Assembly (NCBI GenBank): GCA_964016885.1
Contig: OZ024755.1
Span: 13,392,001-13,456,000 of the forward strand
DNA: 64,000 nt
From: Eledone cirrhosa
Taxonomy: Eukaryota
Direction: 5' to 3'
The notes beneath the pieces were generated by a model. That model ran no database searches, was not told the DNA's origin, and saw only the letters and a list, made by a program, of their open reading frames with translations. Each line of letters starts with the position of its first letter. Position 1 is the stretch's first letter. Below are positions 4,620 through 28,095 of the stretch, piece by piece. The position numbers and the translations under genes are program-made.

Positions 4620-4925
4620 CATACATATATAAATAAATAACGAATGTATATTAAGTGCCTAAAGAAACTAAGAAGGTATATGAAGTTTCTAAGGAAAGGA
4701 ACAAAGAATGTGAGTTTAAGAAACTAAGAATATATATGAAACAACAATGGAAATGACGAAAAAAGAAACTAAGAATGTAAATGAAGTGCATAAAACTAAA
4801 ATGTAAATCAAGTATCTATAGAAAGAAACTAAGAATGTAGATGAAGTATCTAAAGATAGTTAACACTGATCAACAATTAATCTTTGATTACGATGATGAT
4901 ATCTAGAAAAAAAAATTCGTTCAAT
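4620..4925 (-). repeat. Inverted copy of part of the local complex repeat unit (aaagaaactaagaatg sub-repeats)
   Basis: 4858-4924 gttaacactgatcaacaattaatctttgattacgatg...aattcgttcaa is the reverse complement of ~12843-12905 and ~25612-25675. Confidence 0.75.
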
Positions 4926-5111
4926 ACGAGAGGGGAGTAATATTCACTCTGACCAAAGACGACAGATTTCAAAAGATTTTGGTTAATATTAATAATTAAA
5001 TAATTATTTCTGACATTTGAATAAGCCCTACTGTACAGCCGATCCACGTTACTCTTCACTCATTTATATAGTCACACATTACAACATGTATATATCATAC
5101 TTCTGATAAAT

Positions 5112-5395
5112 TTTCCTACGTCCAGCTAAACCATGATCACTGTAAGATTAGAGGTGAAAGAAGCAGTTTTAGGGTGTATACTTCCTTACAGCCAACTAAA
5201 TCCTGGTCAATGCCAGGTTAGAGGATGAAAGGAACGGCTTTAGGGCGTGGTTTGCTTGTAGGCTTTTCTTGGACCAGCTAAACCCTGGTCATCTACAGCT
5301 AACTAAACCTAGGTCAATGCCACGTCAGATGGCGAAATAAGCAGTTTAAGATCATAAACTTCTCGTAGGATCTCCTACGGCCAGTTAAACCTCGC
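5112..5395 (+). repeat. Degenerate ~82/62-bp tandem array, copy 1
   Basis: Units of ggccagctaaaccctggtcaatgccaggttagagggcgaaagaagcagttttagggcgtatacttctcgtaggatcctctac type. Confidence 0.8.
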
Positions 5396-6106
5396 TTGTC
5401 TCTTTTACTCCAGATAATGGAACAGGGGACTTTGTTAAAAGCTTTCTCTGGAAGAAATCTGCTGTATACTTCTTTCTGTGTTGTTAGCAGCCAACAGTAG
5501 TTAGGGTGTTAATCCTGGATAGATTGGCATCCTATCAAGGGAGAGTCTTGTACTCTGAGCCACTTAACAAGGAAACCCGATGATGAACTTAGAACAAACT
5601 ATATACTAATTTTTTAATTTACAAAAACATGTCTATTAATTGTTCAGCATATATCTACTAAATTTCTTTCTCTCTCTATATATACTCATAGTTACATCTT
5701 CTAAAAAACTAAACTAAGCCATCTCTACACTATATACATACATTCTAAGAAATATAACTCAAGCTTCTCTCTACACACATAGCTTCTCTCTACACACATA
5801 CAGATACATTCTGTTATCTCTCTATAAACCTTACTCTGTAGACCAGCGCTCTACCTTTATTGAACCGGTGACACAAAAATACGTATATTCTTCTAAGAAA
5901 AATATATAAACCCGCTTCTCTCTTCTAAGAATTAAAACGAAACCTCTATATACAGCTACATTTCTATATTTCTTTCAAGCATGTCCGCTTCATTTCTTGC
6001 ATACATGCGACCTTTTTTGTCAACAGTGGTTGTAGTAGTACCCCTCCAATCAACCCATTACAGGGCACATCTTACTAGTTTAATACTAGTATATATATAT
6101 ATATAT

Positions 6107-6494
6107 CATCATCATCATCATCATCAACGTTTAACGTCCGTGTTCCACGCTTGCATGGGTTTGGACGGGGGTAGTCCCACTTGAGGCAAGAGTGATTGTC
6201 TTGCTCGCATAGGACTGTCTGGCAGGTTTTCTACAGTTGGATGCCCTTCCTAACACCAACCACATTTACAGTGTGGGTCTGGGAGGTTTTTACCGTGTTG
6301 CCTACACGGCCACATTACAGCGTGGACTGTGTGTTTTTTTGTCGTGACACCTACACGATCTCATTTGTTTCGGCCTCGATGGCGCGGCACCAACATAACT
6401 TTACATAGAACGGGGTGGTGTGGATGGGGTGGTGGTGGTGGGACGGGGTGTATTTTGTTAGAGATGCCTACTGGCTGGAGTAGGTTTTACTATA

Positions 6495-6500
<6 letters not shown>
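6107..6500 (-). mobile_element. RTE LINE 3' UTR-only copy inside a (TA)n tract
   Basis: Identical by eye to 9253-9640; (CAT)n tail on the + strand; TA repeats on both sides. Confidence 0.92.
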
Positions 6501-24522: not shown

Positions 24523-24524
24523 AC

Positions 24525-26780
24525 TTGACAAGGAAACCCGATGATAAACTTAGAACAAACTTTATATATATATACATACTAATATTTTAGTTTACAGAAA
24601 CATGTATATTAACTTACATATTAATTGTTCGGCATATATCTACTAAATACTAATAGTTTTTAAATTAATTTATATATAGAAACGGAATGAGAGTAAGGTA
24701 ACACACGGAATATATTTTGAGGCGTGTTATCTAGCTTTCTTTCCGCTTCTATATTAAAAAAAAACAAACAAACAAAATTTTAGCTATAAGTATGACTAAT
24801 TTACCCAGCTTCGGCAGCCGGAGCTATATGCTGGACTGCTCAAGCAATCATTTTTTTGCTCTTCCTTTATTTAGAGTTACCTCCTCTTTATGGAACTCTT
24901 CTCTTTTTTTATTGACTTCCAGTTCTTTGAAAAAAATTCATTTGGGATATTACTTTCCTCATGTATGGAGGTATGTTATGTTTTCTTTGCTCTACACTCG
25001 AACTATCTTACATTTTATTAAATACACACTTTATGTCAATAACTCTCACACTTTGGATATTGTGTTCATGTGAAGAGGTATTCTATGTTGCTTTCTGGAA
25101 CATCTTCACCCACTCGACACATACTTTCTTTAAAAAAAACTACACATACAAATAGTGTTACCTCTTCTAAGAAACTAAACTAAGCCATCTCGACACTATA
25201 TACATACTTTCTAAGAAATATAACTCAAATTTCTCTCTATGAACATCATTCTGTAGATCTTTCTTTATTGAATACATAGTAAACCTTGTCAACACTAGCA
25301 GATATTCTTGAGACACAAAAATAGGTTTTACTATCTTCTTTTTTTGCTATATACTGTCTACTAAGAAAAATATATAAACCTTCTCTATATACAGCTACAT
25401 TTTTATTATCTTTATTTCTTTCATACCCAATGAAGCATGGCACCTTCATTTCTCGCACACATGTATTATCTTGTACGTAGAAAGTAACCTTTTGTTGTCC
25501 AACTAATTGCTACTGTGTGATTTGGAGCAACGTGAAATAAAGTGTCTTGCTCAGCGCAAAGTCCGGTCTGAGAATCGAACTCACGATTGTAAAGCCCGAC
25601 GACTTAAGTTTTGAACGAATTTTTTTTAGATATCATTATCGTAATCAAAGATTAACTGTTGATCAGTGTTAACTAGATCGATATCACTTTAACCCACGTA
25701 ACATAGAACCATTTACATTCTTAGTTTCTTCTTACGATTCTTTATTCCTTTTCAACACTTAACTGTTGATCAGTGTTAACTGGATTTATATCACTTTAAC
25801 CCACGTAACATAGAACCATTTACATTTTTTAACCCAGGTAACATAGTATCATTTACATTTTAGTTTCTGCTTACGATTCTTTGTTCCTTTCAACACTTAA
25901 CTGTTGATCAGTGTTAACTAGTTCGATATCACTTTAACCCACGTAACATAAGTTTCTTCTTACGATTCTTTATTCCTTTTCAACACACGTAACATGGAAC
26001 CATTTACATAATTAGGAAATTTCATTTGTTCCTTTTTTCGTCATTTACATTCCTAAAAAACAAAGAAAGTTTCTTTCTTTATGCACTTCATATACATTCT
26101 TAGTTTCCTCTATTTAAATGTATATATAATTGTTTCTATATTTGGCACAAGGCCAACAATTACCCAGTACATTACTGGCACTTTATTTTATCGATCCCGT
26201 AAGGATGAAATGCAAAGTTAACCTCGATGTCAACTTTGCCTTTCATCCTTACGGGGTCGATAAAATAAAGTGCCAGTAATTGCTAGCCTTGTGCCAAATG
26301 TAGAAACAATTATATATACATTTAAATAGAGGAAACTAAGAATGTATATATAATAAAAGACAAAATTGGATGAATTTTATCAAGTTTAATATTCTTTTTA
26401 TTGATAACGTATGTTCATTTCTTTTTACAGATGTCCAGCCTTCAAGTTCATATCCTGTGTTGTTAATAAAGAAAATTTTCATTATATTTTAACAAAAATG
26501 AATAGAGAAAGTTTACATATTTTATACGAATTGTGTTCATTTTATTTTGGCAAAAATGAATAAAGGAAGTTTACATATCATATACGTATTGTGTTCTTGA
26601 CAAAAATGAATAAAAAAATCAAGAGTCTACAAGAAACTGAGTAAAACGTACTGTAAAGAACGTAAGTGTATATGAAGTTTCTAAATAAAGAAGCTTAGAA
26701 TGTTCTTTTAAAAATGTCGAAAAAAAAAATCTATATTGAAGGGGGGCGCCATTTTTTTTTCTCCACTTTAGCGACATCAG
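24525..26780 (+). repeat. Insertion-free direct copy of the complex unit found at ~8720-14969
   Basis: Colinear with 8720-14969 once the mariner MITE and the two RTEs are removed; includes the SINE foldback at 26092-26348. Confidence 0.87.
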
Positions 26781-26945
26781 TTCCTCGATCCAGGCTCTTA
26801 ACCATGGATGGGTATCTGATGCCGCTGAAGTGGAGAAATAAAAAAAACAAACAAAATGGCGCCCCCTTCAATATAGAATTTTTTTCGACATTTTCAAAAA
26901 AACATTCCCAGCTTCTTTATTTAGAAACTTCATCATATACACTTA
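26662..26945. repeat. Long hairpin: ~120-bp imperfect arms, 35-nt loop (26781-26815)
   Basis: taagtgtatatgaagtttctaaataaagaagc...ggggggcgccattttt..ctccacttta..catcag / ctgatg..gtggagaaa..aaaatggcgcccccttcaatatag..gcttctttatttagaaacttc..tatacactta. Confidence 0.92.
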
Positions 26946-27607
26946 TATGAAATGAGTGTTTTTGAAAATTCTCTTATATTAGTCCGAATAGCCAATATAA
27001 TTTTCTTTTAAACAACCGGAAGTCAATTGAAAAAAAAAGTTAAATAAGGGGAGATAATTCTAACATTTTTGAGCAAAAGGGGGTAAGACGGATTCTTCGC
27101 GTGGTCCAGGACGCAGGCCTGCAACATTCCAGCCGCTGTAGCCACGTGCACACAACAACGATTCGAACTTGCGACACATACATACGTAGCCGACGAAGTC
27201 CGAGCCGCAATTCGACTAAGTAAATTAGTCATACTTATAGGTAAAATTTTATTTACTTTTTAAAAGAAAAATATAGAAACGGAAAGGGAGATAACACGTC
27301 TCAAAATATATTCTGTGTGTTATCTCACTCATTCCGTTTCTATATATAAAGGAATTTTGAACGTATATACGGAACAATTTTTATGGAAATAAACATACTT
27401 ATGTCAAGCTGGTAACATATATATTACAGGTATATCTGTTTCTGGAAATAAGATGCAAACCTTAGATTTTAGTAATTAGAATTTTATTACGAATGTGTGT
27501 ATGTGTATATGCTGAATCTCCCAGCGTTTTCAAAAACACACATTTCATATAGATTTTTTTTTCGACACTTTCAAAAGCACTCATGTCAAGCTGGTAACAT
27601 ATATATT

Positions 27608-28095
27608 ACCTCCGTTTAGACGACAGTCCAGCAACATTATTGCTTTGCTTCTTTCGCCCTCTTACCTGGTACTAACCAGCTTTAGTTGGCCGTAGGACAT
27701 CCTATGGGACGTATACGCTATAAAACTGCTTCTTTGGCCATAGGAGATACTATGTGAAGTATATGCTTCTCTCGCCCTCTAAGCTTGTAGTGACTAGGGT
27801 TCAGCTGGCCGTAGGAAATACTATGGGAAGTGTGCATTCTAAAACTGCTTCTAGCCTGGCACTGACCAGATATTATCGTACGAGAAGTTTACGCCCTCTC
27901 ACGACATTGACTAGGGTTTAGCTGGCTGTAGAGATTCCTACGGGAAGTATACGGCCTTAAACTGCTTATCTAACCTAGCATTGACCAAAGTTTAGCTGGC
28001 CGTAGAGGATCGTACGAGATGTTTACGCCCTTAAAGTGCTTCAATCGCCCTCTCACCTGGAATCGACCAACTATGGAGGAGGGTGGTTTTGGTGT
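27608..28095 (-). repeat. Inverted copy of the ~82/62-bp array and its flanks
   Basis: 27610-27780 is the reverse complement of ~7470-7643; 28070-28094 matches ~6722-6748 inverted. Confidence 0.85.

Follow-up and report, generated by a model that had tools for sequence, protein, structure and literature searches.

Results

Organization of the locus

The window analysed here is a 64,000-nucleotide stretch of Eledone cirrhosa DNA (contig OZ024755.1 of assembly GCA_964016885.1, positions 13,392,001 to 13,456,000 of the forward strand), an AT-rich animal sequence carrying RTE long interspersed nuclear elements (LINEs), short interspersed nuclear elements (SINEs) and long TA satellites. Between positions 4620 and 28095 of the window lie four pieces of one repeat unit: copy A (6616-15544, with a further part at 15940-15987), copy B (24523-28092), copy C (5097-6021) and the inverted piece D (4611-4927). 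The pieces were detected by a masked self-BLAST and by aligning each module in turn, with block shuffles and two control regions for comparison. All module matches lay above the shuffles and none was found in the control regions; the similarity is extended and does not consist merely of short unrelated matches. An original prediction, made from the sequence alone, had the entire 23 kb built from a single unit. The modules and their mirror order are real, but unit-derived DNA makes up just 9725 of the 23476 bases (41%). LINEs and a miniature inverted-repeat transposable element (MITE) account for 8222 bases of the span, and the region from ~16.0 to 19.95 kb is essentially unrelated to the unit, with a single 37-base match. 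The MITE and two RTE inserts are present in copy A and missing from copy B.

In copy A the modules follow each other in the predicted order, i.e. an 82/62-bp array, a 40-bp array, a unique block split by the inserts, a SINE foldback and a hairpin (Table 1). The direct repeat placed at 24.5-26.8 kb corresponds to copy B from 24523 to 26945, except that B has no arrays on its left side; the inverted 82/62-bp array in its right side (27606-28092) therefore pairs with A and not with B. The deleted copy expected at 5.1-6.0 kb is copy C, and the inverted stretches are piece D and the right side of B (26946-28092). Read outward from the hairpin, this side consists, in mirrored order, of the flank of 135 bases, the beginning of the unique block, a GC-rich block, the hairpin with 31-bp arms and the 82/62-bp array. 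The mirror lacks ~1.7 kb of the left arm, and one 40-bp unit in direct orientation (27527-27588) is inserted there. A mirror about position 26798 does exist, but it is close to perfect for only ~135 bases per arm, and what lies beyond is deleted and 8-22% diverged. To the right of hairpin A, the mirror (15186-15517 against 14807-14547, z 26) is longer than had been proposed, and the portion of the arm retained here, about 500 bases, is another one than that retained by B. The SINE foldback is common to A and B, with a centre shortened by deletion in B. A stray piece of hairpin arm (8313-8341), located between the short repeats and the array of A, matches the left arm of B at 24 of 25 bases. 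The sequences to the left of the arrays of A and C share no homology (z -0.7). An 11-mer common to positions 6568, 11861, 24793 and 27221 was discarded, on a rough estimate by hand, as an AT-rich match due to chance.

Divergence of the copies

Copies A and B differ at 88 of 1406 positions (6.3%, gap-free and pooled over six blocks). The mirror of A differs from its own arm by 22% (16-23% substitutions, depending on the scoring). In B, the young part of the mirror is 6-9% diverged and the outer pieces are 10, 22, 12, 8 and 17% diverged. Copy C is 3.5% away from A at 5215-5496 and 15-18% at 5676-6021, whereas piece D is ~4% from B (3/68). Some of the blocks are short, which gives these estimates wide intervals. 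The pieces are thus of mixed age (3.5-22%), and since a single event should leave a single age neither a one-step head-to-head concatemer, as had been suggested, nor a single fold-back explains them. The mosaic would need an inverted duplication of old date, with later amplification and exchange in patches.

The hairpin and its flipped loop

A new finding of this analysis is that the 35-base loop of hairpin B is flipped relative to that of A, matching it at 28/35 positions when reversed and at 14/35 in direct orientation, and that the arms of B are homogenised and extended to 135 bases, compared with 34 paired bases per arm in A. A long-read fold-back or an assembly artefact is ruled out by the diverged arms together with an exact 310-base contig of public short reads (X2) that covers the loop, the arm and the junction of B. 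Publications are cited below by their PubMed Central numbers, and statements about them extend to excerpts of their text. Loop inversion with homogenisation of the arms is described as the product of intermolecular template switching (PMC8604942). The flipped loop with longer and better matched arms resembles the spacer inversions of inverted repeats described there, although the event in B is larger, involving a loop of 35 and an arm of 135 bases, and seems to have been accompanied by a deletion. In our analysis one switch that rejoined further out could account for flip, arm extension and deletion together. Piece D is flanked by 73-bp direct duplicates (4389-4459 and 4993-5065), as would be expected for a templated insertion.

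Candidate Helentron-type ends around copy C

Read on the minus strand, copy C lies between two groups of signals, a T-run, a subterminal repeat, an inner repeat and GTCT units (6600-6551) on one side and the partner repeat, a palindrome and a T-rich end (5080-5020) on the other. The two subterminal repeats (6582-6593 and 5069-5080) match at 11 of 12 positions. The inner repeat, with a 6-bp stem, and two GTCT units lie at 6551-6580, and on the 3′ side, which adjoins the array, an 8-bp palindrome (5031-5038) precedes the T-rich end near 5020. A scan for such end modules found one pair in the window; 100 shuffles gave four 5′ modules and no pair.

Probable related copies elsewhere in the genome

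Public short-read contigs from four of the seven listed runs were aligned to 24523-28140 at 80% likeness. None of the runs listed was of RNA, which says nothing about expression. In X1 the summed contig depth, counted by hand, ranged from 135 to 2415 (median 596) in 25 of 30 bins; the others were three SINE bins, with depths of 0.3-5 million, and two bins of the 40-bp unit, with ~5000. Three contigs matching exactly (X1, X2) had depths of 5.7-11.2. Letters of the copy A type occurred at a depth of 56 in the left arm and of 139/148 in the loop, and a single alternative letter was common to up to 24 contigs. A further deletion of the centre of the SINE foldback was seen at a depth of ~100, and some contigs match just 120-140 bases before diverging from the window sequence. 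A second sample and restriction-site-associated DNA (RAD) reads likewise cover 30 of 30 bins. The excess in depth suggests tens of related copies elsewhere, some nearly identical to one another, although summed depth does not equal copy number and does not separate dispersed from clustered copies.

Coding, RNA and database searches

As predicted, no enzyme gene is visible outside the LINEs: none of 108 frames of at least 55 amino acids exceeded the Pfam cut-offs. Four of them gave weak matches (E 0.02-0.04), all under the curated cut-offs, and as a control both LINE frames were matched. A search of Rfam over 4200-31000 returned 100 matches at E<=1, none of which reached the gathering score, the best being generic hairpin or TA matches. 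Single units of the 82/62-bp array fold no better than shuffles, and the consensus energy over 13 of the 23 units detected was -0.18. A pattern search detected no hammerhead core inside the unit. Exact unit patterns had no match in viral contigs, metagenomes or prokaryote genomes, nor did blastn give any in a phage collection. For the unit we found neither terminal inverted repeats, nor a target-site duplication of 7 bp or longer, nor matching outer ends.

The repeat families RTE, Dong-R4 and tRNA-Deu are recorded for Octopus vulgaris (PMC13282606). The excerpted text of that annotation does not contain the words 'foldback', 'Helentron' or 'palindrom', and in the excerpts of the literature we found no account of the present repeat family, which may already stand as 'unknown' in Repbase or Dfam.

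Insertions and neighbourhood

Table 1. Coordinates of the unit copies, their modules and the insertions among them (positions in the window; bp, base pairs; aa, amino acids)
Positions	Strand	Feature	Support or remark
4389..4459	+	73-bp direct duplicate with partner at 4993-5065; the pair flanks inverted piece D	89% identity
4611..4927	-	Piece D, inverted unit fragment: end of unique block, 138-bp repeat, short-repeat flank	3/68 mismatches to B
5020..5080	-	Candidate Helentron-type 3′ module: subterminal repeat 5069-5080, 8-bp palindrome 5031-5038, T-rich end	putative role
5097..6021	+	Copy C: array units and deleted unique block	alignment to A
6107..6546	-	3′ end of RTE LINE with TA tract, later insertion	384/384 identical to 9247-9640
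6551..6600	-	Candidate Helentron-type 5′ module: T5, subterminal repeat, 6-bp inverted repeat, two GTCT units	putative role
6616..7647	+	Copy A, array of 82/62-bp units with no fold conserved as RNA	
7648..8342	+	Copy A: one small hairpin, the array of ~8 40-bp units, repeats of 20/34 bp and a stray fragment of hairpin arm	
7776-8111		Copy A, 40-bp array	
8343..8828	+	Copy A: more array units, start of unique block	
8829..9228	.	MITE with terminal inverted repeats, TA at both sides; missing from B and C	sequence
9250..11733	-	RTE LINE, 5′-truncated, 699-aa frame with reverse transcriptase domain; insertion not in B	
11734..13035	+	Copy A, unique block: hairpin with 31-bp arms 11742-11822, SINE fragment, 138-bp repeat	
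13036..14203	-	Second RTE LINE, 7-bp target duplication; insertion not in B	
14273..14545	.	SINE foldback including ~30 bases of flank	common to B 26090-26349
14936..15038	.	Hairpin A: arms of 34 bases with perfect pairing, loop of 35 bases with partial pairing	z -12.4 as DNA
15040..15544	-	Old mirror of 14520-14930	16-23% substitutions by scoring; z 17-26
15940..15987	-	Inverted 40-bp unit	z 14; weak further mirror to ~16130, z 3.2
19951..23400	-	Degenerate third RTE LINE that has an endonuclease frame	
24206..24522	+	Fragment from the interior of an RTE, fused to the truncated left end of B	5% from 13424-13725; putative deletion junction
24523..26780	+	Copy B, left arm, without the three inserts of A	88/1406 mismatches to A
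26781..26815	-	Loop of hairpin B, inverted relative to A	28/35 reversed vs 14/35 direct
26816..28092	-	Copy B, right arm: young 135-bp mirror, older deleted mirror of unique block, direct 40-bp unit, inverted 82/62-bp array	

The RTE 3′ ends at 6107-6495 and 9247-9640 lie 3 kb apart, and their identity points to a very recent insertion, conversion or local copy. The 699-aa RTE frame (9638-11737, minus strand) runs without a stop and has a PHD finger right after the reverse transcriptase domain (Pfam E 3.5e-5). The MITE is presumably of the Tc1/mariner type. Fragments of two more LINEs, at 61700-64000 (minus strand) and 2950-4230 (plus strand), we take from their look to be Dong/R4-like and CR1/L2-like, respectively.

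Several short local repeats, some of them inverted, occur between 16.2 and 18.6 kb, where a hammerhead-like core whose long stem II precedes an AATAAA is also found (16578-16682, plus strand; the folding is not significant, z -1.2); this arrangement we assume to be like the ends of Penelope-like elements. A second hammerhead-like core, with a stem II of 6-7 bp, lies at 44295-44323 (plus strand, z -0.9). Two near-perfect palindromes are unrelated to the unit, one around a TA tract at 24032-24205 (97%) and one at 30609-30728 (92%). The ends of the sequence 39044-39633 may resemble those of a Lep1-type non-autonomous Helitron. Among the tandem arrays are a 24-bp TA-rich satellite with 99 copies (31287-33657, 97% match), a TA-rich array of 16.4 kb (45281-61684), a GC-rich 137-bp repeat (29216-29617, 98%) and a 46-bp array of ~8 copies (37301-37663).

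Discussion

The locus is a nest of four decayed, non-coding repeat copies. We tentatively propose that they were carried by a non-autonomous Helentron and folded by template switching, an explanation to which we assign a probability of about 40%. The series of events might have begun with an old inverted duplication about the hairpin, whose arms are now ~20% apart, after which a SINE would have inserted in one arm and folded back. The family would then have been amplified, with A and B splitting at 6% divergence. In B, replication could have switched strands at the hairpin, inverting the loop, copying 135 left-arm bases and rejoining at a more distant point. The insertions into A, the deletion of the left end of B and the addition of D as a templated inverted insertion would have come last. 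A foldback-shaped element and fold-back events, both considered in the original prediction, fit this scheme, as do template-switch events. Its weakest step is carriage as a passive rolling-circle element of the Helentron type.

Non-autonomous Helentrons are marked by a pair of subterminal inverted repeats of 11-15 bp, with 2-4 bases between the 5′ one and a T-run, by an inner repeat complementary to the 5′ subterminal repeat and followed by a GTCY microsatellite, and by a short palindrome near the T-rich 3′ end, 38-60 bases past the 3′ subterminal repeat (PMC4067079, PMC7492417). Tandem inner copies are often 3′-truncated (PMC4067079, PMC7492417), and A would be one of these. With DINE-1, HINE and the oyster Cg_HINE, the present family shares the lack of coding sequence, short internal tandem arrays, the absence of a target duplication and truncated tandem neighbours, and around copy C also the subterminal pair, to which may be added a putative inner repeat with GTCY microsatellite and a putative 3′ palindrome with T-rich ends. 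Unlike them, it has such ends at just one of four pieces, and its larger forms possess mirrored arms of 4 kb, a hairpin of 103 bases and, as a fixed part, the SINE foldback. Judged by sequence, copy C is the only candidate Helentron member among the pieces.

Several observations weigh against carriage by a Helentron. The criteria of the end-module scan were tuned after the motif had been noticed, and the 6-bp stem of the inner repeat is shorter than the 7-12 bp seen in oyster (PMC4067079, PMC7492417). The 73-bp duplicate extends ~30 bases beyond the proposed 3′ end. The end signals occur around C alone, being absent from the far end of A and from the array end of B, and the subterminal 10-mer is found twice in 4-31 kb with no further match within one mismatch. 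The presence of four pieces inside 24 kb suggests clustering, and to this are added the limits of the depth data named above.

Clustering also speaks for a close if somewhat doubtful rival, according to which the locus is a composite heterochromatic segmental repeat (macrosatellite-like) that is not mobile and was amplified in a single region or a small number of them through unequal exchange together with fold-back repair, the Helentron-like ends coming from an unrelated element or being captured by chance. The satellite-rich surroundings, the palindromes and local repeats in unrelated nearby DNA (24032-24205, 30609-30728 and 16.2-18.6 kb) and the lack of both a target duplication and shared termini speak for it as well. 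Yet the end pair around C exceeds the shuffles, contigs matching 120-140 bases and then differing fit copies with different flanks, and the junctions proper to B are on contigs at a depth of 5.7-11, whereas most letters of the family are A-like. Repeated fold-back repair at a fragile site, as originally considered, agrees with the fold-back events, but purely local repair leaves the related copies elsewhere unexplained. The mirror order also recalls a decayed non-autonomous cut-and-paste foldback transposon of the Mutator/Foldback, Galileo or Tetris type, with modular 4-kb arms and a tiny middle, which we regard as improbable. Outer tandem arrays, an inner unique domain, a small middle and the mirror order can be pieced together across A and B, TA tracts adjoin both outer ends, and Tetris and Galileo likewise have modular inverted arms, with tandem repeats on the outside and a unique domain inside, as well as arms extended by recruiting internal sequence and copies that are rearranged or chimeric (PMC4079207, PMC3573991). 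The arms of the present unit are longer and far more diverged than theirs (6-22% apart), however, and its outer ends (6547-6630 and 28080-28160) share neither a terminal inverted repeat, beyond one 7-mer, nor any 7-mer in direct orientation, homology ending 50-180 bases before them. A target-site duplication of 7-10 bp was absent from three end pairs except for one TA-rich 7-mer; the true ends may be lost. A link between Tetris and DINE-1 found no confirmation in the excerpts of the literature.

The incompletely paired 103-base hairpin in two inverted forms, with tandem arrays lying behind it and a loop conserved across many family contigs, calls to mind the flip/flop telomeres of poxviruses, where a hairpin of similar size (~100 bases), also with incomplete pairing, exists in two forms inverted to each other and is backed by repeat arrays (PMC8956199, PMC13668194). 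The pieces could then be integrated head-to-head junctions of hairpin-ended linear DNA with a poxvirus-like telomere or a densovirus-like or Polinton-like end. This we consider highly improbable. The arms past 34-135 bases are 10-22% apart although the copies differ by 6%; the loop, at 57% AT, is not AT-rich, and the whole hairpin (66% AT) is about at the local background. No viral frames and no viral database matches were found in the searches described above, and loop flips are an ordinary product of template switching (PMC8604942). The 40-bp unit is present on both sides of hairpin B and there fits a pattern of poxvirus resolution sites. This pattern also occurs at four background sites outside the 40-bp unit, and at 26725 and 26880 it points away from the hairpin, opposite to the ends of vaccinia (PMC8956199). 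It is just as improbable that the family is the terminal region of an undescribed hairpin-ended linear cephalopod element with flip/flop telomeres, arrays resembling resolution sites and tens of integrated head-to-head junctions, whose coding core would lie beside other copies. A hairpin serving as the end of a linear replicon would, if true, matter far more than the explanation we prefer, but the tests do not support it. Polintons (Mavericks) possess polymerase and integrase genes, terminal inverted repeats and a 6-bp target duplication. Here there was no coding remnant in the 108 frames and no terminal match, duplications shorter than 7 bp not having been searched; with arms that are not identical and no match in viral, phage, metagenome or prokaryote sequences, the proposed Polinton-like or viral origin finds no backing.

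The locus is real and intricate but mechanistically ordinary, the mechanisms involved being already known. If the copies were indeed carried by a Helentron and folded by template switching, the locus shows how a passive rolling-circle element may expand to a foldback of several kilobases that includes arrays. The locus would then also offer an orderable series of template-switch events in the little-studied repeat landscape of cephalopods, which would be of help in repeat curation.

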